The notes beneath the pieces are model-generated. The model was not told the DNA's origin. It made no database searches and worked only from the letters and a program-made list of their open reading frames with translations. The position numbers and the translations under genes are program-made. A DNA stretch of 64,000 nt from Bacillota bacterium. GTDB lineage: Bacteria > Bacillota > DTU025. The stretch spans positions 1-64,000 of the forward strand of contig JBMNJT010000005.1 of assembly GCA_050951805.1 (NCBI GenBank), written 5' to 3'. This document shows, one piece after another, positions 132 through 13,672 of the stretch (position 1 is the stretch's first letter; each line of letters starts with the position of its first letter).

Positions 132-1376
132 TCATCCATCCCTGGTATATGTCAACAACGGCACTCTGACTTTGCGGGGCAGCAGGCAGCCCCGATAGTC
201 TCCTAACAAACCGCGATCAGCCAGACCCCACTCCCATACCGAGCCATCCGATGTCACACAGGCCGAAAGGTGCAGGCCTGCGGCCACTGCCACTGCGCCG
301 GATATACCAGGCACTGGTTTCGGCGTAGCTCGGCTCTTCTCAGTCCCATCGCCCAATACCCCGAAGGAGTTATCTCCCCATGCCCATACTGTTCCATCAG
401 CCGTGACCACTAGACAATGTCCGGCGCCTGCGCTGATTCCTATTGCTGGCGGGAGACCTTGAACCCGCCTCGGGACCATCGTGATCTCATCGCTCACGCG
501 CGCCAAAGACGATGATGAAGCGCCCCACATCCACACCTCGCCATCTGCCGTGAGAGCCATCGAGAAACCTGCTCCGGCCTCGACTCGCACAGCGCGCGGT
601 AGGCCCTCAACCCTTGAAGGCATAGGAGAGCCGCTTGATTCAGCGTCAGCCTCGGCGCCGACACAATCTCCCCACGCCCAGACCGACCCGTCGTTGCAGA
701 GAGCAAGTGAATGGGAGCATCCAGCCGATATGTCCACTACCCCAGAAAGCTCGGCTACTGGCTGAGGAACCTCGCGTGTAGCCGTGCTCCCATCTCCAAG
801 TTGCCCCCAACGATTGCCCCCCCATGTCCATACAACGCCTTCGGAAGTCAGCGCCATGCAATGACCTCCACCGGCATCAATGGCAGACATGGGAGGAAGT
901 CCGGCAACTCGCCTTGGCTGGCTGCGGTTCCAGTTACCTTCTGGATAGTCGCCCCATGTCCATACGCTTTCGTCCAAGCCAAGAAGCAGGTTCTTCGAGA
1001 TGCCTATCGACACAGCCTTGGCCTTGGGCAAGCCCGGAATGGGCCTCGGACGCCTACACCAATTTCCCCACTTCAAGAGTAGTTGACCCCAATAACTGTC
1101 TCCCCAGCCCCACACGATCCCGTCGGGCGCTACAGCCATCCCACACACTTCAACTGTGATTAACGAACGAACATCAGTAGTCACATCCCCTATCTCCACA
1201 GCCACGCCACTCGGTTCGGCTTGGACTGTTGATTGCAGTGATGAGAAGCTGAAGCGCCCCAGATCGTGCGATGCCCACGCATCGCCGAAAACAAGCAGTC
1301 CAATGAAGACCGACGCAAGCGTTAGCAATGACAGGCCTGCATTCAGGCTGGAAACTCTGGTCTCTTGGGTCCTCAT
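132..1376 (-). CDS. secreted/membrane-anchored RCC1-repeat (BLIP-II/ATS1-like) beta-propeller protein; candidate immunity/accessory protein of the Rhs module
   Basis: AGGAGG RBS 6 nt before ATG 1376; N-terminal hydrophobic signal (LSLLTLASVFIGLLVFGDAWA); repeated AGxxHxxALxxDGxVWxWGxNxxGQLGDG units. Confidence 0.85.
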   Translation of the reverse strand: MRTQETRVSSLNAGLSLLTLASVFIGLLVFGDAWASHDLGRFSFSSLQSTVQAEPSGVAVEIGDVTTDVRSLITVEVCGMAVAPDGIVWGWGDSYWGQLLLKWGNWCRRPRPIPGLPKAKAVSIGISKNLLLGLDESVWTWGDYPEGNWNRSQPRRVAGLPPMSAIDAGGGHCMALTSEGVVWTWGGNRWGQLGDGSTATREVPQPVAELSGVVDISAGCSHSLALCNDGSVWAWGDCVGAEADAESSGSPMPSRVEGLPRAVRVEAGAGFSMALTADGEVWMWGASSSSLARVSDEITMVPRRVQGLPPAIGISAGAGHCLVVTADGTVWAWGDNSFGVLGDGTEKSRATPKPVPGISGAVAVAAGLHLSACVTSDGSVWEWGLADRGLLGDYRGCLLPRKVRVPLLTYTRDG

Positions 1377-3260
1377 AATAGCCCTCCTAGCACATTCGTG
1401 GGCACTAGGTTTCCACGGAGGCCCAATAGGAAAGGACACATGCCCATCTCCATTTCCAGGTATCCTAGTCCCATGTATATACGTCATACTCATACCAGCA
1501 CTCGCGATAATCATCGTATGCGGGCCACCTATATATGTAGTTGAATAGCCATTCCTCATCATTGTCGAGGAATCATGCACTCCTTCGTAGCGCGGCTCCA
1601 ACACGGACAGCATTTCTGCAAGCTGGGCAGCGCCACAGCGTTTGTCTGCGCTGCCCGACCCGTACAAGGGTTCGAACTCATGTCTCAGCTTTTGATCGCA
1701 GACGGCAGAGATGATTTCGGGAACAACTAGAAAGCTTGTGATTTCCTCGCTCGCCATTCCTAGAGCCGTTTTCGCCAAGCCCGAGGCATCACCGGCAACA
1801 GCGTCCAGGGCCAGATCCATAACATCCAGCAGTAATCCCAGTTGCTTCGATGATAGTGATAGTCCATGGGCCGCTGCAATCTTAAACGGATCATCGAAAG
1901 TCATTCCTACCCGGAAACACGTTACCATAAGCACACGTGAATCTCGCTTGCTAATCATTGACTGCCTGCCATATGAGGTGCGGTAGATCTCAAACATCCC
2001 TGTTGGATCTACGTATACCATGGGATTCCCGCCGCAATATGCGTACCAATTCAGCCCGTCCCTCGCCGGATCTCTGCTTATGAACCTCCCTACCTCGGGG
2101 TCATATTACCTGGCCCCGAAGTAGTAGAGCCCTATAGCGCCATCCTCAGGCTTTCCAGTGAATCTGTGCGCTCCGCTGGCCAGCGGCCCTGTTGATGTGG
2201 CAACCAACCCGAACGGTTCATATTCGAACCTCGCTGCGACCTCGCCCGAAGAGTCGGTGATCGCCCTTATGGATCCTAGCAAGTCGGTGTGGCAAAAGTA
2301 GACTTCAGCAGGATCCGAGTCTTGCTGTACTACCTTAGCCAAGTGTTTCCCGTTCAGGACAAGGTAGCATGTGACGAGTCTGTCATACTCCGTCACCGGG
2401 GAAGTGGGCGGGTCGCCCGTGCCGGGATCGTCTGGATCGGGATCATCTGGGTCAGGATCCTCTGGGTCATCAGGCGGTGGAGTCGGCGGATCCTCAATTA
2501 TCGGACCAATCGGATCGACTATTATCGGGTCGCCCGGGATTGCGTTTGGCCCAGCGTTCGAACCCGCAGCCTGCGACATTGTGCGAACCTCGTACACTAT
2601 ATCGTTCCCAGAGTGCAAGGTTATGGTAGTCGTTTCGCCCTGGATCGTCTTTATCCTGCGGCCCATGGCGTCGTACTCGTATTTCGCCAGAGCCACGCCG
2701 TCCACCTTCACCTCGTTCATCAGGCGCTGAGCGCTGTACGCATAATCCGTTCTTGTCTGGCCTTGCGTCTTTGATGTCAACTGCCCGTATGGCCCCCAGG
2801 AGTAGGCTGTCGTCCCCCGGGTCCTAAGGTAATTGCCGGGCAAGTACTGGTACTGCACTGTGCCAGTGTCCGACCAGCTTTCAACCGTTCGATTGCCTGC
2901 CCCGTCATACTGGTAGGTTGCGTTGGCCATTCCCCCGGGCCTGGGAACCTGGGCAAACGTGAGCCTGTTGATCCGGTCGTACCCGTAGTTCAGCTCAAAC
3001 GGAGAGCCCCCATTGATCCCAGATATGCGGGATACATTCCCTTGGGACGTGTACGAGTAGCCAAGTTGCAGTATGTTTTCAAACGGCTGTTGCCTTGTTG
3101 CAGTTATGGACTTCAGCCTGCCCTGGGCATCGGTCGCATAAGCGGTGCTCACCCCGTTGATCGAAGTAGAGCTTGCAAGATGGCCGTTGGCATCGTATGT
3201 AAACCCCACCTGCCCCGGCTGGGACTCAGACCCGTAAGCAGATTGATGTCGCATGAACAC
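1377..3260 (-). pseudogene. 5'-truncated Rhs/YD-repeat protein with Rhs-associated core and C-terminal domain; in-frame TAA at 2106-2108
   Basis: YD repeats (YDANG, YDRINRL, YDGAGNR, YDAMGRR), HTDLLGSIR, YEPFG, then GLYYFGAR*YDPEVGRFISRDP...NWYAYCGGNPMVYVDPTG in one frame. Confidence 0.85.
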
Positions 3261-4935: not shown

Positions 4936-5312
4936 TTGCTGACTCCCCCCCAAGTATGAGATGACATCTCGTTATTGGCCGACTCGACACAGCTTAAGCC
5001 GCGTAAGTCAGATAAATACTGCCGAATTCGCTGTGTTCACGTGATAGGCTCCCGTATCGTCCCCCTCCCATGTTCACTCAAGTCGCGCGACATGGGTTCT
5101 CCCGACCAGTGCCACACTCTGCCCATACGAAAACCCGCATGGCATTGCCGCCATCGCCCTCGCAAATCTACGGTTCAAGCAGGATATCGCAGCCTCCAAG
5201 GCGAAGAACAGGCGCTTGGAAGCAAGTAGACTCTACGTGCCTTAATCCGCGCAACGAGCGCCGGGATAATCAGTCACAGCCAACACCTCCGAAACAGCGG
5301 GAGGCGGACCAA

Positions 5313-6299
5313 ATGTTCGGATACACCAAACCTTACGGCCAACACAGCCCGGCCAATGCGGCGAATGTGCCTCGACAAGGGGCCCAGCCATGCCGAAATT
5401 TGGCTGCTAAAGAAACTTGCAGCTACAAAGCCCATTACTGCGGACTCTGTTTCGCTCTTTCGCGCCAATATGGCCCGCTTTGGCGAGCCTGCGCCAATTT
5501 CGACTCCACGCTCCTGCTCCTGCTCATGTCGGCACAGCAGCCGGACGCGCCCACGCTCACAAAAGCCTTTTGTCCATTGGGAGCACCCAGGCGGTATTGC
5601 GTCATAGACGGCGATGAACTCTTCATGAAAATAGGTTCCGCTTTCACAGTCGCCATGGTAGACTTAAAAAGTCAGGATGCGATCATAGACGGCGCCAGGG
5701 CGGCAAGACCGGCACGGCTTTTGGGCAGGCGCGCCTTCGCCCGAGCCGAGAGAGTCCTTGCCGAAAACCACTTCGACGCATCATCTCTTGACGAGATACA
5801 AAAGCGCCAAGGAAAACTGGAATCGATGGCTGTCGAGAATCCCCTGAGCGTTTCCTTTGACGATCTGGCTGCGCCGACCGGGCACGGGCTCGCCAAGGTC
5901 TTCGAATATACGGCCGACCTCGCCGGGCTCCGCCCGAACGCCGAGCCGCTTCGGAGAATAGGCAATGCTGCAGGCAAGATCATCTATGCCGCCGACTGCC
6001 TTGAAGACCTGGAAACCGACCTTGCCCGGGGGCGCTTCAACGGCTTGGCCGCATGTTCCATGGTTGTTCCGGGCACTCTGATCCTAACAGGCGAGGCATC
6101 CGCAGGACTCAAGTACCTACTAGACCGATGCCGGGCCGAGATAGCATACGCTCTTCGGGAGCTAGAGACCGTGCGCTACCGCGCCATAATCGAAAACATA
6201 CTTCTTACATCGCTTCCGCTGCGCGCATCCGAAGTTTTGGCGTCGCGGACGGAATCCGGGCACGAACCAAACCATCACAAGGTGGATGATATAGGATGA
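5313..6299 (+). CDS. DUF5685 family protein (predicted helical isoprenoid-synthase-like fold)
   Basis: MFGY start behind GGAGG; YKAHYCGLC motif; acidic motifs KSQDAIID and YAADCLEDLETDLARGRFN. Confidence 0.8.
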   Translation: MFGYTKPYGQHSPANAANVPRQGAQPCRNLAAKETCSYKAHYCGLCFALSRQYGPLWRACANFDSTLLLLLMSAQQPDAPTLTKAFCPLGAPRRYCVIDGDELFMKIGSAFTVAMVDLKSQDAIIDGARAARPARLLGRRAFARAERVLAENHFDASSLDEIQKRQGKLESMAVENPLSVSFDDLAAPTGHGLAKVFEYTADLAGLRPNAEPLRRIGNAAGKIIYAADCLEDLETDLARGRFNGLAACSMVVPGTLILTGEASAGLKYLLDRCRAEIAYALRELETVRYRAIIENILLTSLPLRASEVLASRTESGHEPNHHKVDDIG

Positions 6300-7458: not shown

Positions 7459-8466
7459 TCAATCAGGCTCCCAAAACCACGATTCGAACATGTCTTTGCA
7501 GATGGACTCGAGAGCGTGCCTCTCGAAACTTTCGGGGAATGCCGACAATGCCCTGACAGCCTCCTGCTGGAGATCTTCCAAAATGCCCTCGAGCCACTGG
7601 CGAACAGGCCCTTCCTCTAAGAGCACTGACATCTCGATCCCAGCTTGCTTCGCCCCTTCCGCGTCTCGCCGCGCCTGGGCCGAAAGCGCCGCCAGCCGTT
7701 CCTCCCCTACTTGCATCGCAAGGCCGACCATGGGAAATCCGACTCTCTGTTCCTCGAGGTCGCCCAGTGAAGCGCCTTTTGTGTTTGAATCGAACCCTGT
7801 GAGATTGTTGATGTCATTTACCGTCTGAAAAATGAACCCAAGAAACCTTCCATACTTCGCAAGCGCATCGATCTCCTGCGCATTGCCTCCTCCAAGAACC
7901 GCACCTATTGCCAATGACTGTTCCATGAGGGATGCGGTCTTTCCCGAAATCACCCTCACAGCGCAATCAACGGTCGGGGCTCCGCGCCAAGGCATAAGTT
8001 CAAGCAGCTCACCTCGGCACATGTCGTAATGGGCGGCGACAAACCGCTGCCTCGCCCTCCGAGCAGCCTCCCCACGCACGAGATCTTCCAGACCATCTAT
8101 AGCCCGATAAGCCCTGGCTACGAGGAGGTCTCCCATGATAACGGCTCTTTGAGCCCCATACACATGGCAAAACGACGGCTTCCCTCGCCTCAGAGGATCC
8201 CCATCAACGAGGTCGTCATGGATTAACGAGGCTTTGTGGAGCAACTCCACGGCCAGGGCAGCAGGAATCCAAATCTCTTCGTCCTCTCCCCCGCACATCA
8301 CGAACGCGGTCTGCAGCAGGCAAGGACGAAACCTCATTCCGCCGCCTACAGCAGCCCAGTACATTTTCTCGAATTCGGGATCCAGGTCACTGCAATCCGC
8401 AAGCGCCTGCTCAACCCTGCGCACAATGGGACCGAGCCGCTCCTGATAAAGCGCACGCGTATCCAT
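7459..8466 (-). CDS. polyprenyl synthetase family protein with degenerate second aspartate-rich motif
   Basis: GGMRFRP, ELLHKASLIHDDLVDGDPLRRGKP (FARM), GKTASL, FQTVNDINN in place of FQxxDDxLD. Confidence 0.9.
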   Translation of the reverse strand: MDTRALYQERLGPIVRRVEQALADCSDLDPEFEKMYWAAVGGGMRFRPCLLQTAFVMCGGEDEEIWIPAALAVELLHKASLIHDDLVDGDPLRRGKPSFCHVYGAQRAVIMGDLLVARAYRAIDGLEDLVRGEAARRARQRFVAAHYDMCRGELLELMPWRGAPTVDCAVRVISGKTASLMEQSLAIGAVLGGGNAQEIDALAKYGRFLGFIFQTVNDINNLTGFDSNTKGASLGDLEEQRVGFPMVGLAMQVGEERLAALSAQARRDAEGAKQAGIEMSVLLEEGPVRQWLEGILEDLQQEAVRALSAFPESFERHALESICKDMFESWFWEPD

Positions 8467-9998
8467 CAGATTACCTCTGCGTCCTTCATGGCTTCACGTT
8501 TTTCCTCAACTTCAGCATTGGAAAGCCTTCCCCTCTCAGTTATCTGCAACGCTTTCGAGGCCCCTGTCTGAGGATCTGTAATAACAGCATCCATTCTCAT
8601 GTTCGAATCATACTTATAGACGACTTCTATCGGATAGTTGCGCGGCTTGGGCCCGTCCAACTCCAGCACAGCCTCGCCTATCTCGGTGCAGTTGGCAGGA
8701 TCGCTGTCCTCGCCCTGCAGAACCACCATCTCCACAATCCGCTGCCCGTCCTCGTGAACATAATAGGTCTCCTTCCGTTCGGCCGGAACGGGCGAGTTCT
8801 TGGGGATCATTATCTTGTTAATATCCTGGCCTGTCGCAGAATCGACCAGAAGTATGCCATAGCTATGGCTTGTCACGTCCTCTATTTTGGTATCGCGAAG
8901 CCTACGCCCGGCGTCGGTCAGGATTATGTCCGGATCTCCCTTGCCCGCAAGCATTATTCCAGCATAGATAGCGGCCCCGTGGGCGACTGCCTCATCCGGG
9001 TTGATGCTGACCGTGGGTTCTTTTCCCGAAGCCTTCCTAACGAGTTCGCACACCGCAGGCATCCTGGTCATCCCGCCCACAAGCAACGTCTGGTCGATGT
9101 CGTTCCAGGTCAACTCTGCCGATTTGAGGACCGTATCGAGCAATAGCTCTGACCTGCCCAAAAGGTCTGCGGTCATCTCCTCAAATTGCTCCCTCGAAAG
9201 CTCGACGGTGTGCCGTTTCCCCTGGGCGCTCACGGCTATCTTGGCAGACTGGCGAGTCGACAGCGCCTTCTTGGCCGCCTCCGCTCTTTGGCGCAGGTCC
9301 TGCAGAGCCTCTGGGTCCTCGAGAAGGTCGATCCCGTGCTCCTCCTCGAACTTGCGAGCGCAATGCATTATGATGCGATCGTCAAAATCCTTGCCCCCAA
9401 GCATGTGGTCGCCGTCGGTCGCAACGACCCTGATCTTGCCTTCTTCAACCTCCAGGATCGTTACGTCGAAAGTCCCGCCCCCGAGGTCATACACGATGAT
9501 GCGCTGGTTGATGTCGGGGTTGCTCATTCCGTAGGCGAGCGCGGCCGCAGTGGGCTCGTTCACGATCGCAAGCACATTGAGCCCGGCAATCTCCCCCGCA
9601 TCCATCGTGGCCTGTCTTCGCGCATCATCGAAGTAGGCCGGGACCGTGATTACTGCTCCGGGAAGTTCCGTGCCGAGCAAGACTTCTGCATCCGTCACCA
9701 GTTTCTTGATGATTAGCGCTGAAAGGTCTTCCGGGCGGAACTCGGTTTCGCCGTGAACAAATACATAGTCTGCATTTCCCATCTGCCTCTTCACGAACTC
9801 GACTACATTGCCAGGGTCGGCAACAGCGCTGTTTTTTGCGATGGTGCCCACTGTGAACTGGTTTTCTTGATCGAACATGATCACCGAGGGGGTGATGCGC
9901 TCTCCCTCTTTGTTCGGCACAATCTCGGGTTTGCCGTAATCATTGAGCACGGCGAGACACGAAAAAGTGGTCCCGAGGTCTATACCTACTGCCTTCAT
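8466..9998 (-). CDS. Hsp70-family protein (non-canonical, 510 aa, no alpha-helical lid)
   Basis: GIDLGTT, TVPAYF, NEPTAAA, DLGGGTFD, LVGGMTRMP, NPDEAVAHGAA. Confidence 0.95.
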   Translation of the reverse strand: MKAVGIDLGTTFSCLAVLNDYGKPEIVPNKEGERITPSVIMFDQENQFTVGTIAKNSAVADPGNVVEFVKRQMGNADYVFVHGETEFRPEDLSALIIKKLVTDAEVLLGTELPGAVITVPAYFDDARRQATMDAGEIAGLNVLAIVNEPTAAALAYGMSNPDINQRIIVYDLGGGTFDVTILEVEEGKIRVVATDGDHMLGGKDFDDRIIMHCARKFEEEHGIDLLEDPEALQDLRQRAEAAKKALSTRQSAKIAVSAQGKRHTVELSREQFEEMTADLLGRSELLLDTVLKSAELTWNDIDQTLLVGGMTRMPAVCELVRKASGKEPTVSINPDEAVAHGAAIYAGIMLAGKGDPDIILTDAGRRLRDTKIEDVTSHSYGILLVDSATGQDINKIMIPKNSPVPAERKETYYVHEDGQRIVEMVVLQGEDSDPANCTEIGEAVLELDGPKPRNYPIEVVYKYDSNMRMDAVITDPQTGASKALQITERGRLSNAEVEEKREAMKDAEVI

Positions 9999-10026: not shown

Positions 10027-10698
10027 TCATGCCAATTCCTGTCTGGCCCTGGCTATCAGCACCATCATCCGTTCGGCTTCCTGCCTCTTTTCAAGATCGG
10101 GATGGTTAACTCTGGCCCGATAGATATTGTACTGATCGAGCAGCATCTGCTCCTTCCGATCACGGCTAGCAGACCTGGGAATGCCCAGTTGGCTCCATAC
10201 ATCTTCGTGCCCATCGCGCTCCTCTAGCGGAGGAGGAAGCACGTCAGGCCTCCCGCGCCCCTCCCGGGGGCGGTCCTCGAACTGGCCCTGCCCTCCTGCA
10301 CTCGATAGCGCAAACATCAACACCCTTTTTCTCCTGGCCACAAGCTTGTCCCCATAGTAGATCCCCAGGTTGCAGTAGGCCTCAAAGTAGCCTGCCTTAT
10401 CGAATCCAAATGCGTCATAGGGCATGAAAACGGTGAAATCATCGTATGTGCTATCCCGATAAGGAGGGGTGAAATCCTCGGCTGTGCACGCATTTCCTGC
10501 AACATCTGCATATTCATCGATTGCTCCGCGCACGGGGGAATTGTCTGTATAGTAAAACCAATAGATTATGGTCATCTCACGACCTGCGCCGGGATTGTAT
10601 CCTCTCACTGTCATTGAAGAATGAATAACAAGTCCGTTTCTGCCGCCCATAGATACGTCAAAATCCGCCCAAATCCTATGTATTTCTGCAGTTGTCAT
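10027..10698 (-). CDS. two-domain protein: N-terminal beta-rich domain plus C-terminal degenerate J-domain with HPD
   Basis: C-terminus DVWSQLGIPRSAS...RARVNHPDLEKRQEAERMMVLIARARQEL parallels the DnaJ J-domain (YxxLGV...HPD...A...I..AY..L); lies between two Hsp70 genes. Confidence 0.75.
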   Translation of the reverse strand: MTTAEIHRIWADFDVSMGGRNGLVIHSSMTVRGYNPGAGREMTIIYWFYYTDNSPVRGAIDEYADVAGNACTAEDFTPPYRDSTYDDFTVFMPYDAFGFDKAGYFEAYCNLGIYYGDKLVARRKRVLMFALSSAGGQGQFEDRPREGRGRPDVLPPPLEERDGHEDVWSQLGIPRSASRDRKEQMLLDQYNIYRARVNHPDLEKRQEAERMMVLIARARQELA

Positions 10699-10719: not shown

Positions 10720-12255
10720 CTAATCCACCCGCATTCTGTCCATGAGCCGCTTCTTTTCTGCCACTTCAGAATCTGTCAGCCTGCCCCTTTGGGATATGTG
10801 CAGTTCGGCGCGTCTTCCTGTCTTCTTGTCTTCCATATAGGCATGTATCATCATGTTGGCATCGTACTCATATGTCACTTCCACCGGGTATCCTTTGTGC
10901 ACAGGCCTCTCGAAAAGGAGCTTAGTCTCGCCTATGGCCACACAGTTTTCGGGATCTCTGTCCTCTCCCTGAAGGACGACAAAATCCACGCCTTCCTGCC
11001 CATGGGAGACCGTGTAGAAGCGGTCGACAATCCGCGCCGGGATAGGAGTGTTTTTGGCTATCATTATCTGGTTATACAGTTCATTTGTCATCGTATCCAT
11101 CAGTATGATGCCGAACGAATGAGACGTCACATCGGTGACCACGGTATTTGCAAGCCTGCGTCCCTCCGTAGTCTTGAGGATACTTGCATCTCCACGCTGC
11201 CCCATGATAATCCCCGCCTGAATCGCAGCACCTATTGCAACGGCCTCATCAGGGTTTATGGCCTGGTTTGGCGCCTTGCCCGACATCGACTCGAGCATCT
11301 CACGGACCATGGGCATCCTCGTGGAACCACCGACAAGGAGTATGGTGTCTATATCTTTCCATGAGGCTTTGGCGCTTGCCATGACAGACTCCACCAAGAG
11401 CCTCGTCCGTTGGAGCAAGTGGCCGGAAGCCTCTTCAAACTCGCTCCGCGTTATCTCATGCGACAGACGCTTGCCTGCAGCACTCACGCTGATCTTCGCA
11501 GATTCAAGGGTCGACAGAGTTTTCTTGGCAGACTCGGCGCGCTGCCTCAGGTCCATCTGGTTTTCAAGATCCTCCAGAAGATCAACTCCGTGTTCTTTCC
11601 TGAAAGCTTCGTTGACAAGGATCATGATCTGGTCATCGAAATCGTTCCCGCCCAACATGTGATCGCCATCGGTGGCCACCACCCTTATCTCACCGTGCGA
11701 GACATCCATGATGGTGACGTCGAAGGTTCCCCCGCCCAGATCGTAAACGAGGATTCTCTGCTTGGAAGCGTTATTGCCCATCCCATAGGCCAGTGCCGCC
11801 GCGGTAGGCTCGTTTATTATCCTCAGTGGATTGAGCCCTGCGATCTTTGCCGCGTTGAGCGTCGCTTGCCTTCTCACATCGTCGAAATAGGCTGGAACCG
11901 TGATCACAGCATCGGTGATGCCCTCGCCGAGGAGGGCCTCAGCATCCTGAACGAGCTTCTTCAAGATGAAGGCCGAGATCTCCTCAGGCCCGTACTCCCG
12001 CCCATCACGGAGAAACATATAGTCTGCATTCCCCATCTGACGTTTGACAAACTCCACGACATTGTATGGATCTGCAACAGCGGCATTTTTCGCCACCCTA
12101 CCGACGACGACAGAATCATCATCGCCGAAATAGACAACGGAAGGCGTCGTCCGTTCGCCTTCTGCATTTGGCACGATCTCTGCCTTTCCATATTCATTGA
12201 GGACCGCCAAAGTGGAGAAAGTTGTTCCAAGGTCAATCCCTACCGCCCGGCCCAT
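10720..12255 (-). CDS. Hsp70-family protein (non-canonical, 511 aa, no lid)
   Basis: GIDLGTT, TVPAYF, NEPTAAA, DLGGGTFD, LVGGSTRMP, NPDEAVAIGAA. Confidence 0.95.
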   Translation of the reverse strand: MGRAVGIDLGTTFSTLAVLNEYGKAEIVPNAEGERTTPSVVYFGDDDSVVVGRVAKNAAVADPYNVVEFVKRQMGNADYMFLRDGREYGPEEISAFILKKLVQDAEALLGEGITDAVITVPAYFDDVRRQATLNAAKIAGLNPLRIINEPTAAALAYGMGNNASKQRILVYDLGGGTFDVTIMDVSHGEIRVVATDGDHMLGGNDFDDQIMILVNEAFRKEHGVDLLEDLENQMDLRQRAESAKKTLSTLESAKISVSAAGKRLSHEITRSEFEEASGHLLQRTRLLVESVMASAKASWKDIDTILLVGGSTRMPMVREMLESMSGKAPNQAINPDEAVAIGAAIQAGIIMGQRGDASILKTTEGRRLANTVVTDVTSHSFGIILMDTMTNELYNQIMIAKNTPIPARIVDRFYTVSHGQEGVDFVVLQGEDRDPENCVAIGETKLLFERPVHKGYPVEVTYEYDANMMIHAYMEDKKTGRRAELHISQRGRLTDSEVAEKKRLMDRMRVD

Positions 12256-12813
12256 CTAGTCATCCACCCTTTCGTGGCCATCCCCGTCCCAGCGGGCAAC
12301 CGCAACCATCTGATGGCGCAAAACCTTGTCATCCTTGATGAAGCCGTCCTTCATCACTTTGACAACCTTCCCGTCTTCTCCAGGGCTGTTCGCGCGTTCC
12401 ACCCTTACAGCTCGCTGGCACTGAGGATCAAAGGCGTCCGATTCGCAAGCCATGCGCTCTATGCCGCGCCGATAGAGGACTTCGAGGACCTCTTCGAGGA
12501 CATATTCAAGGCACTCCCGGGCAACTTCGTTTTCGGGTGCTTGGACATCATCGCGCGAGATGTAGCTCTTGATATTGTCGTATAATAAAAGCAGGTCGGC
12601 ATAGACCTCATTCATGCGCCTATCGACGAAATCATTCTTGAACATGTCAAGCTCCTCATAGAGCTTGTTAAAAGCCTTGTCTTTAGCCTCATCATACTCG
12701 ATCTTCTCCTCGAACATGGCGATGAGAACATCGAGTTTCTCATGAATGCAAGGCGTCTGCACATCCGCAAGACCAATCGTATCATCGTCCATTCTGCCTT
12801 GGCCAGCGTCCAC
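12256..12813 (-). CDS. grpE: GrpE-family nucleotide exchange factor
   Basis: coiled N-terminus, LLLLYDN, FDPQCQRAV, VVKVMKDGF...VLRHQMVAV; abuts the Hsp70 gene. Confidence 0.85.
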   Translation of the reverse strand: MDAGQGRMDDDTIGLADVQTPCIHEKLDVLIAMFEEKIEYDEAKDKAFNKLYEELDMFKNDFVDRRMNEVYADLLLLYDNIKSYISRDDVQAPENEVARECLEYVLEEVLEVLYRRGIERMACESDAFDPQCQRAVRVERANSPGEDGKVVKVMKDGFIKDDKVLRHQMVAVARWDGDGHERVDD

Positions 12814-12857
12814 TCAGGATTCTCCTTTCCCCATGAGTTGCACATGCTTTTGCGCCC

Positions 12858-13292
12858 CTATCCCGAACAGGATTGGCAGATCGAATACACGCAGAGTCCG
12901 GCAACGCACTGCTCACACAGTTCATCATTATCGCAGGGTCCATCGCCTCCTGTCATTTTCGGACCAGGACTAGGCCCAGGGATAGGAAGCGGCGCATCAT
13001 CTCCGGGATCAGCCGGCCGTGCCTTGCCCCCCATGGTATATATAAAGGACTCGAGCTCTCCTTCCCGGACAAGCAGGTCTTCTAGGGTAGCGAGAAACGA
13101 GTGGCTATGCAGATACATGCCCGCTTGATCGGCTTTGAAGGCTTCCATGAGCAGATCATAAACGAGCTGCCCCAGTCCATGGTCGGAAAGGGTGCGGGTG
13201 AAACGTAACGTGTTTTCACGCCACGAGGCGGAATCGCAATTAAAATTGTCCCACATTACAGGGCCTATCGCCAACGACGTGTTCAGAACCAT
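12858..13292 (-). CDS. small protein with Pro/Gly linker and Cys-rich hydrophobic C-terminal tail
   Basis: GGAGGATGGAG RBS; ends PCDNDELCEQCVAGLCVYSICQSCSG; first gene of the Hsp70 operon. Confidence 0.75.
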   Translation of the reverse strand: MVLNTSLAIGPVMWDNFNCDSASWRENTLRFTRTLSDHGLGQLVYDLLMEAFKADQAGMYLHSHSFLATLEDLLVREGELESFIYTMGGKARPADPGDDAPLPIPGPSPGPKMTGGDGPCDNDELCEQCVAGLCVYSICQSCSG

Positions 13293-13672
13293 AACTCCAT
13301 CCTCCGTCCGCCTCCCAAGGGCGCTTCACAGATTTCATAACTAGTTTATGGTTTCTACAACCATCTATGGAATCCTTCACTATTTGCGTCCAAAGGCAAA
13401 GCAGAACATGACGGACGCAGGCAGAGTTACCCATAAATCACCTGCCTGTTCAACCAGGATGGGTCCCCGCGCTCTTCACTCATGCAGCTTGATCCTCGAC
13501 AGGCAACGTCTTGGCAATACTCCCTTCCGCCAGACCCGCTAACCTACGTTCATGCTATGGCTGCAGAAGCAAACACCGCTTGAATTTTCTCGCGCTGGCA
13601 GTGTACACTTAGAATTGCTAGTCCACAAATTGCCCGAGCAACCACGTGCTCAGGATACGAGGAGGCATGATC

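Follow-up and report, generated by a model that had tools for sequence, protein, structure and literature searches.

HscA/HscB/IscU and HscC/DjlC are specialised bacterial Hsp70 systems, and IscU carries an Hsp70-binding motif. The eukaryotic cysteine-string protein DNAJC5 and farnesylated Ydj1 are lipid-anchored J proteins, MoeN5 is the moenomycin prenyltransferase, and protein S-prenylation is counted as a eukaryotic trait. Here we compare these and related systems with a locus in a 64,000-nucleotide (nt) stretch of the genome of an uncultured Bacillota bacterium from an anaerobic digester (contig JBMNJT010000005.1, positions 1 to 64,000; hereafter the window), in which a 144-residue protein with a cysteine-rich C-terminus, referred to as CysTail, is encoded together with two Hsp70 paralogues, a GrpE-like factor, a J-like protein, a polyprenyl-synthase homologue and a protein of the family DUF5685. 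CysTail resembles a carrier, and all that its family keeps throughout is a helical domain, a junction motif and a greasy tail rich in cysteines. Its main context is the private Hsp70/GrpE/J set and a phylum-wide link between DUF5685 and cysteine tails. We tentatively propose that the prenyl-fold enzymes act on this tail or work together with it. S-prenylation is the most likely chemistry and would give a lipid-anchored Hsp70 adaptor.

ComQ, which prenylates tryptophan in the ComX pheromone, requires NDxxx or GDxxx at the site of the second Asp-rich motif (SARM; PMC5331326, PMC10853753), and the change from N to D at this site nearly abolishes activity (PMC5331326). As in ComQ/ComX, PalQ/PalX and the ChrPC P domain, an isoprenoid-synthase-fold protein is encoded in the window next to a polypeptide that probably serves as acceptor through its C-terminal end. 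The synthase homologue, like ComQ, keeps the first Asp-rich motif (FARM) and has N-D-x-x-x in place of the SARM. ComQ-type systems modify tryptophan, however, as do all trans-IDS-like peptide prenyltransferases characterised so far (trans-IDS, trans-isoprenyl diphosphate synthase), according to a 2026 review (PMC13290415), and the tail of CysTail has no tryptophan. Unlike ComX, CysTail is no short precursor but a protein of 144 amino acids with a folded domain; the locus has no ComP/ComA, and it also encodes DUF5685 as a second protein of the isoprenoid-synthase fold, together with a full Hsp70 set.

With DNAJC5 and Ydj1 the locus shares the tie between Hsp70 co-chaperone function and a Cys-rich segment of the lipidation type, most clearly in the canonical partners of DUF5685, which combine a J domain with a C-terminal cysteine string. 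CysTail differs in that it has no J domain of its own (the J-like partner is a separate gene) and six cysteines rather than a long string; homology was seen with neither protein, and the enzymes beside CysTail are of the prenyl type and not DHHC. Like HscA/HscB/IscU and HscC/DjlC, the locus has extra Hsp70 paralogues and a J protein of its own, apparently for one cysteine-bearing client, and it likewise has a conserved Pro-containing motif beside a disordered stretch. In contrast to these systems, CysTail has no IscU/NifU fold or family match, the Hsp70s are lidless, a private GrpE is present and the operon has prenyl-fold enzymes and no desulfurase. DUF5685 shares with MoeN5 and polyprenyl diphosphate synthases an all-helical isoprenoid-synthase fold (Foldseek E 1.4e-4 to 3e-3, template modelling (TM) score 0.46-0.63) with two Asp-rich motifs at helix ends; it differs from them in its low identity (11-15%) and in an extra N-terminal part with three invariant cysteines. 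An earlier, sequence-only reading of the window had compared CysTail with the eukaryotic CYSTM proteins, in which a low-complexity Pro/Gly region is likewise followed by a terminal Cys-rich hydrophobic stretch. The resemblance holds, but not as a family match: five members of the CysTail family gave no Pfam match at E up to 10, and CysTail is bacterial, less hydrophobic and encoded in an operon with chaperones and enzymes.

A literature search (supplementary files not covered) returned no paper on the function of DUF5685, on bacterial cysteine-string J proteins or on the operon described here; the sole DUF5685 paper found merely lists the domain. In our view the module, whose chemistry is putative, falls into none of the known kinds of system, and CysTail is a candidate for a lipid-anchored chaperone adaptor, for which bacteria offer no described example so far.

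CysTail and its family

The gene and the parts of its product, all on the minus strand, are as follows.

12858-13292, minus strand: CysTail open reading frame (ORF), 144 amino acids and stop, no Pfam, NCBIfam or PADLOC family
13301-13305, minus strand: Shine-Dalgarno sequence GGAGG, 8 nt 5' of the CysTail ATG, read from the sequence
13032-13268, minus strand: helical N-domain, residues 9-87, with the conserved block A-D-x-x-G-M-Y-L-x-S
13002-13019, minus strand: junction motif R-P-A-D-P-G, residues 92-97, from a 12-sequence alignment
12936-13001, minus strand: Pro/Gly-rich linker, residues 98-119, disordered, with a predicted local distance difference test (pLDDT) score < 50
12861-12935, minus strand: acidic patch and six-cysteine hydrophobic tail, residues 120-144, from alignments and a low-confidence predicted helix

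The CysTail ORF is real: it has a Shine-Dalgarno sequence, three lineages of uncultured Bacillota have homologues of it, and it is covered by RNA-library contigs. The latter come from four libraries of four studies (sludge and digester metatranscriptomes) and reach into the GrpE-like gene (X1, 11342-13428; X4, 12542-13197; X7, 12616-13326; X8, 12436-13280). Intergenic bins with little or no RNA cover were not taken as evidence, and a promoter/terminator scan 5' of the ORF gave nothing convincing. The translation agrees with the earlier description of a protein of exactly 144 amino acids that ends in six cysteines. Such an end is rare: in the same genome (2.75 Mb, 8 contigs), 12 of the 5663 six-frame ORFs of at least 100 amino acids have at least five cysteines in their last 25 residues, and three have at least six. 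None of the other Cys-ended ORFs is like the CysTail tail; they are wrong frames or have zinc-ribbon or ferredoxin-like ends.

In the AlphaFold2 model, built from an alignment of 12 sequences, residues 9-87 form a confident helical bundle (mean pLDDT 88-95 for blocks of residues 21-80), residues 92-128 have no structure and the tail is a low-confidence helix. Across 12 sequences, down to 29% identity, D55, G58, Y60, L61, S63 and L67 of the N-domain are invariant, as are R92 and P93 of the junction, where D95 and P96 are conserved to at least 90%. C129 of the tail is kept in all 12 sequences and C134 and C142 in at least 90%, and all six cysteines are invariant in the four closest sequences (64-99% identity). 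The tail cysteines are kept while the rest diverges, which was the check proposed with the sequence-only reading. The count of six stands for the genus only: of its 17 sequences, the 16 complete ones have 4-6 variably spaced cysteines in their last 30 residues (a frameshift interrupts the 17th). CC or CCC runs occur in the tails of two homologues, and in one (L010) seven residues follow the last cysteine. L, I, V, F and A are interspersed among the cysteines, and an acidic run precedes the first of them in most family members. The linker differs between homologues in length and composition. It had been described as a Pro/Gly/Asp linker, and residues 98-119 are indeed disordered; its start, however, is the conserved junction R-P-x-D-P-G and no mere spacer.

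Searches with the N-domain were uninformative and are not evidence of a new fold: Foldseek gave no match in the PDB at E up to 0.001, and the best Z-score of VIA-align wide was 6.2, all matches being generic helical bundles. The ESM Atlas held no usable match for CysTail, a Pfam scan found no DnaJ match in it, and PADLOC assigned no family to the nine locus proteins, CysTail included.

Could the tail simply seek the membrane? It might be an unmodified or S-acylated segment of the CYSTM or cysteine-string kind, with the Hsp70s aiding post-translational insertion and the enzymes making a membrane lipid rather than modifying a protein. The tail is terminal and hydrophobic and follows a low-complexity linker, the best 17-residue window has a mean Kyte-Doolittle value of 1.3-2.0 in 13 of the 16 complete sequences, and a polytopic membrane protein is encoded in the operon. 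In eukaryotes, moreover, the cysteine-string protein is a J protein anchored via its Cys domain (PMC10903463). The tail in the window scores only 1.09, however, and together with its close relatives (P0002, P0003 and L009) spans 0.76-1.13, which is weak for a transmembrane helix; the locus has no acyltransferase, and the company of DUF5685 and cysteine tails in 27 of 30 loci (see below) would go unexplained. We consider this explanation unlikely.

The family is narrow in its distribution as sampled. A word-indexed protein search gave three homologues among 14 candidates, and a profile search of 1.84 billion representatives gave eight matches. Among 61 related genomes CysTail is present in eight, all of one family (f1; both genomes of genus g1 and five of six of genus g2). 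The profile had six matches in 401 genomes of the phylum, the window's own genome included, two of them in a second family (f10); contig scans added eight genomic and 23 metagenomic loci. One of the six profile matches (G237, E 8e-4), which lies within a 3643-residue frame, was regarded as spurious.

DUF5685 and the cysteine tails of the phylum

5313-6299, plus strand: DUF5685 protein, Pfam PF18937 (116 bits), conserved MFGY start at 5313

The longest ORF for DUF5685 starts at 5070, 81 codons 5' of the MFGY start; the extension (5070-5312) has no counterpart in 11 homologues and is, judged by this comparison, probably not translated. The AlphaFold2 model, built from 12 sequences, has a pLDDT of 87.6 and a predicted TM score of 0.87. 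Foldseek matched it to MoeN5 (E 1.4e-4, TM 0.48-0.63) and to octaprenyl/polyprenyl synthases (TM up to 0.62), at 11-15% identity. D122 and D126 on the one hand, and D228, D232, D236 and N243 on the other, are invariant in 12 of 12 sequences, and each group is placed at the end of a long helix. Equally invariant are C43, C46 and C87 in the N-terminal extra part. Compared with the PDB by sequence, DUF5685 gave chance-level matches only (E about 0.9), and the ESM Atlas returned only DUF5685 clusters.

Of the 301 phylum genomes sampled, 36 (∼ 1 in 8) encode DUF5685. We examined 30 loci from this sample, and 27 of them are tied to a cysteine-rich tail. In the common form (22 loci) a J-domain protein of about 130-240 residues is encoded directly 3' on the same strand and has 5-11 cysteines in its last 30 residues. 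Two loci (L036 and L037) have a J-less helical protein with a similar Cys tail, in two of family f10 CysTail is a gene by itself within an Hsp70 cluster, and in one (L047) a tail of about 16 cysteines, rich in His, Asp and Cys, is fused to DUF5685 itself. In the other three the J gene runs past the contig end, only 185 nt of 3' flank are present, or no partner is found in the flanks. The last of these (L024, 383-1276, genome G133) has an internal C-A-C-C-C run near the C-terminal part of DUF5685. The linkage of DUF5685 with CysTail is also found in L011, L012, L014, L015, L048/L049, L083 and L084.

The canonical J partners match DnaJ and, weakly, tetratricopeptide repeats (TPR) in Pfam, with no match in their tails; in NCBIfam they have only generic DnaJ-type matches, and DUF5685 has none. 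CysTail shares with the DUF5685-linked proteins a hydrophobic stretch with at least four cysteines that follows a helical domain and a low-complexity linker. The J domain of the common form is not within the CysTail polypeptide; a J-like domain is present on a separate protein.

The locus with the fused tail (L047, 9553-12488, genome G181) continues with a membrane protein of 161 residues, a synthase homologue with NDLNN and a Peptidase_A24-like membrane protein (28.1 bits, cut-off 26.5). It has no N-domain, Hsp70s, GrpE or J-like protein. The ORFs that flank the cluster resemble, from their translations, hypF and hypE/D/C/B of hydrogenase maturation.

The fused tail bears on a different function, the binding of a metal (Zn, Fe-S, Ni or Cu). 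CysTail would then be a scaffold or metallochaperone that is served by Hsp70, J and GrpE and delivers a metal or cluster to the three cysteines of DUF5685, in the fashion of IscU with HscA/HscB. A pattern CxxC ... CxxC can be read in most members of the CysTail family, acidic residues precede the tail, and the R-P-x-D-P-G motif could match the role of the Hsp70-binding motif of IscU. The three invariant cysteines of DUF5685 could form an open metal site, the fused tail, rich in His, Asp and Cys and located among ORFs read as hyp genes, is sensible as a cofactor module, and the window's genus has a ferritin gene that is divergent to the operon. The fused form and the acidic residues are well accounted for by metal binding. 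However, the ferritin gene is adjacent in this one genus only and is replaced by a methyltransferase in genus g2, and the operon encodes no cysteine desulfurase, NifU/IscU-type domain or metal transporter. The residues between the cysteines are hydrophobic, unlike those of known metal tails, and neither the number nor the spacing of the cysteines is fixed (4-6 Cys, CC/CCC runs, the seven-residue extension in L010). This variability and the hydrophobic spacers fit lipidation or a membrane string better than a fixed metal site. We regard metal binding as less likely than S-prenylation, but as its serious rival. If it were the function, the locus would be a new dedicated Hsp70 system for metal delivery beside HscA/HscB.

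The synthase homologue and the fate of the tail

7459-8466, minus strand: polyprenyl_synt homologue, Pfam 144.6 bits; FARM DDLVD intact, pseudo-SARM NDINN, GGMRFRP for GGKRxRP

In alignment with the geranylgeranyl diphosphate synthases 1wy0 and 5xn5 the synthase homologue keeps the first Asp-rich motif and the following RRG; it has NDINN in place of DDxxD and Met in place of the Lys of GGKRxRP. The pattern NDxNN is present in all eight DUF5685-linked orthologues, one of which comes from a distant family without Hsp70 genes. The other polyprenyl_synt gene of the same genome, a canonical IspA next to an xseA-like gene, has DDLED at this site. Judged by these motifs, the homologue of the operon is in the ComQ-type pseudo-SARM state, although no NCBIfam match to ComQ appears among the 16 families listed. 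The IspA-like ORF (L057, 1363-2178; ∼ 1188065-1188880 of contig C2 of the same genome; 271 residues) is without the usual N-terminal GGKRxRP region, and Pfam covers profile positions 42-194; its short N-terminus may be a mis-called start or an assembly frameshift.

The ComQ-type motif invites comparison with pheromone and peptide maturation. The tail has the look of a core at the C-terminus, and in the sequence-only reading it had been taken as a possible core of a ribosomally synthesised and post-translationally modified peptide (RiPP), cleaved after a Gly-Gly site. On this explanation the N-domain would be a leader, and the ComQ-like enzyme would prenylate the tail, which is then cleaved and exported; the Peptidase_A24-like membrane protein that follows the synthase homologue in L047 would suit it. 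We find it highly improbable. The Gly-Gly pair is absent in four of the 12 aligned sequences, and the supposed leader is a conserved, confidently folded bundle. The RiPP-like core finds no backing in NHLP, Nif11 or any other NCBIfam/Pfam match, and the operon has no exporter, C39 peptidase, peptidase-exporter or two-component sensor. In most of the phylum, furthermore, a similar tail is attached to a full J-domain co-chaperone, which is no leader peptide, and the tail of CysTail offers no Trp.

We return to S-prenylation, which is a reasonable hypothesis because the tail cysteines are conserved and the gene is tied to two isoprenoid-synthase-fold proteins, both of which keep their metal-binding aspartates. 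DUF5685 and the ComQ-like homologue would act on or with the tail of CysTail, one or more of its cysteines would become S-prenylated, and CysTail would thereby turn into a lipid-anchored membrane adaptor. The private chaperones (two lidless Hsp70s, GrpE and the J-like protein) could hold the unfolded, oxidation-prone tail, keep it reduced until it is modified and then hand it to the enzymes or the membrane, a direction that we infer; alternatively, the anchored adaptor may recruit the private chaperone set to the membrane. In eukaryotic farnesyltransferase a zinc ion activates the substrate thiol, and by analogy we suggest that C43, C46 and C87 of DUF5685 might hold such a zinc. The N-domain probably works with the chaperone set and the tail with the enzymes, because the L047 locus, where the tail is fused to DUF5685, lacks the N-domain together with the Hsp70s, GrpE and the J-like protein.

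Several points weigh against this proposal. Residues 120-144 contain no Trp, the residue modified by all characterised trans-IDS-like peptide prenyltransferases. A substrate would hardly be expected as a fusion to its enzyme, as the tail of DUF5685 is in L047, and this form suits a cofactor or anchor module equally. Acidic residues are found around the tails and inside them, and the abundance of His, Asp and Cys gives the fused tail a metal-binding look. The fold matches of DUF5685 are moderate (TM about 0.5-0.6, root mean square deviation 5-7 Å). Alignments are shallow (8-12 rows), and a profile comparison of CysTail, whose N-domain was set against the TPR middle of the canonical J-TPR-Cys partners, by hhalign and likewise from shallow alignments, gave a probability of 2%; because it shows no homology, the relation of CysTail to these partners rests on architecture and neighbours. 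RNA-library contigs are not strict proof that CysTail is transcribed, as DNA carry-over is possible. Complex prediction with the synthase homologue, DUF5685 and the CysTail partner gave 0.71, 0.63 and 0.00, compared with 0.00 and 0.00 when the partner was replaced and 0.77 when chain 1 was replaced; this counts neither for nor against binding.

A bolder version, which we hold to be possible but doubtful, is that the locus belongs to the first bacterial system for protein S-prenylation, in which DUF5685, helped or supplied by the ComQ-like homologue, lipidates a cysteine string, and that the product is a prenyl-anchored device for recruiting Hsp70 at the membrane. In such a system, and with the same doubt, the string would sit on a J-domain co-chaperone in most Clostridia and here on a separate carrier with private lidless Hsp70s. 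Were the tail prenylated, the lipidation chemistry would be new, DUF5685 would gain a function, and bacteria would have a means of positioning Hsp70 at their membrane; the recruiting device would be a bacterial counterpart of the cysteine-string protein and of farnesylated Ydj1. In ∼ 1/8 of the sampled phylum genomes the module links an enzyme of the prenyl fold with a cysteine string and with Hsp70 co-chaperones. The window locus is its expanded and most dissected variant so far: the carrier has no J domain, and there are two lidless Hsp70s, a GrpE and a paralogue of the ComQ-like kind. This variant is useful for experiments because its parts (carrier, J-like protein, two Hsp70s, GrpE and two enzymes) are separate genes, so that each step can be tested alone.

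Chaperone genes and arrangement of the operon

The remaining genes of the locus are listed below.

12256-12813, minus strand: GrpE-like nucleotide exchange factor, Pfam GrpE 63.1 bits
10720-12255, minus strand: Hsp70 paralogue A, 511 amino acids, Pfam HSP70 468.8 bits, profile positions 1-509 of 599
10027-10698, minus strand: J-like protein, 223 amino acids; conserved N-domain of unknown fold and family, linker, C-terminal J domain with HPD
8466-9998, minus strand: Hsp70 paralogue B, 510 amino acids, Pfam HSP70 466.2 bits
6747-7457, minus strand: polytopic membrane protein, 236 amino acids, DUF2232-like, orthologues match PF09991
6296-6769, plus strand: 157-residue protein of unknown family, start overlapping the DUF5685 stop by 4 nt

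CysTail is followed on its strand by the genes for the GrpE-like factor, Hsp70 A, the J-like protein, Hsp70 B, the synthase homologue and the membrane protein, with gaps of 0-44 nt or one-base overlaps; DUF5685 and the gene for the 157-residue protein are convergent to this operon. Hsp70 A and B lack the helical lid, as judged from the Pfam match, which ends near position 510 of 599. Their mutual identity is 60%, against 40% with the housekeeping DnaK, which is encoded on contig C2. The C-terminal part of the J-like protein, searched as a profile of nine orthologues against the PDB, matches DnaJ J domains (E 4.7e-4). HPD itself is found only in genus g1, the g2 and f10 orthologues having SPD or SAD, and the f10 copies carry an N-terminal glycine-zipper-like segment (weak Pfam hints). 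The window copy of the membrane protein has no Pfam match; its orthologues score against PF09991 with 31.2 (L055; cut-off 27.8), 25.1 (L014) and 21.2 bits (L048). No cysteine desulfurase, NifU/IscU-type domain or metal transporter was found among the nine proteins of the operon and locus in Pfam and NCBIfam.

The seven-gene set of CysTail, GrpE-like factor, lidless Hsp70, J-like protein, polyprenyl_synt homologue, DUF2232-like protein and DUF5685 co-occurs in three arrangements in separate lineages. The gene order of the whole set is kept in a second genus. In family f10 the order is GrpE, Hsp70, CysTail, J-like protein, synthase homologue and membrane protein, and DUF5685 lies some kilobases further; a third, metagenomic lineage has the same seven genes, DUF5685 included, all on one strand. 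CysTail had been described as leading its operon, and it does so here and in its family; since two other lineages have it in third place (GrpE-Hsp70-CysTail-J...), the leading position is not a trait of CysTail as such.

The divergent ferritin gene is adjacent to the operon only in the window's genus. Between the two, two contigs of the RNA run X1 stop in adapter sequence at 13428 and 13460; these ends may mark divergent transcript starts, which contigs cannot prove. In genus g2 the place of the ferritin gene is taken by a methyltransferase. A class-I-like methyltransferase ORF lies directly 5' of CysTail in three g2 genomes (L004, 366-1247; L006, 301-1206; L005, 1496-2194), and the counterpart in the window's own genome is located at 87387-88757 of contig C2, beside a 26%-identical paralogue of the 157-residue protein. 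The methyltransferase may be a further member of the system. Orthologues of the 157-residue protein occupy the same place in L011, L012, L014, L015 and L075. Further from the operon, two large ORFs on the minus strand of the window (132-2021 and 2106-3260) have translations that resemble, by eye, repeats of the RCC1 type and RHS/YD repeats with a stretch rich in Pro and Asp.

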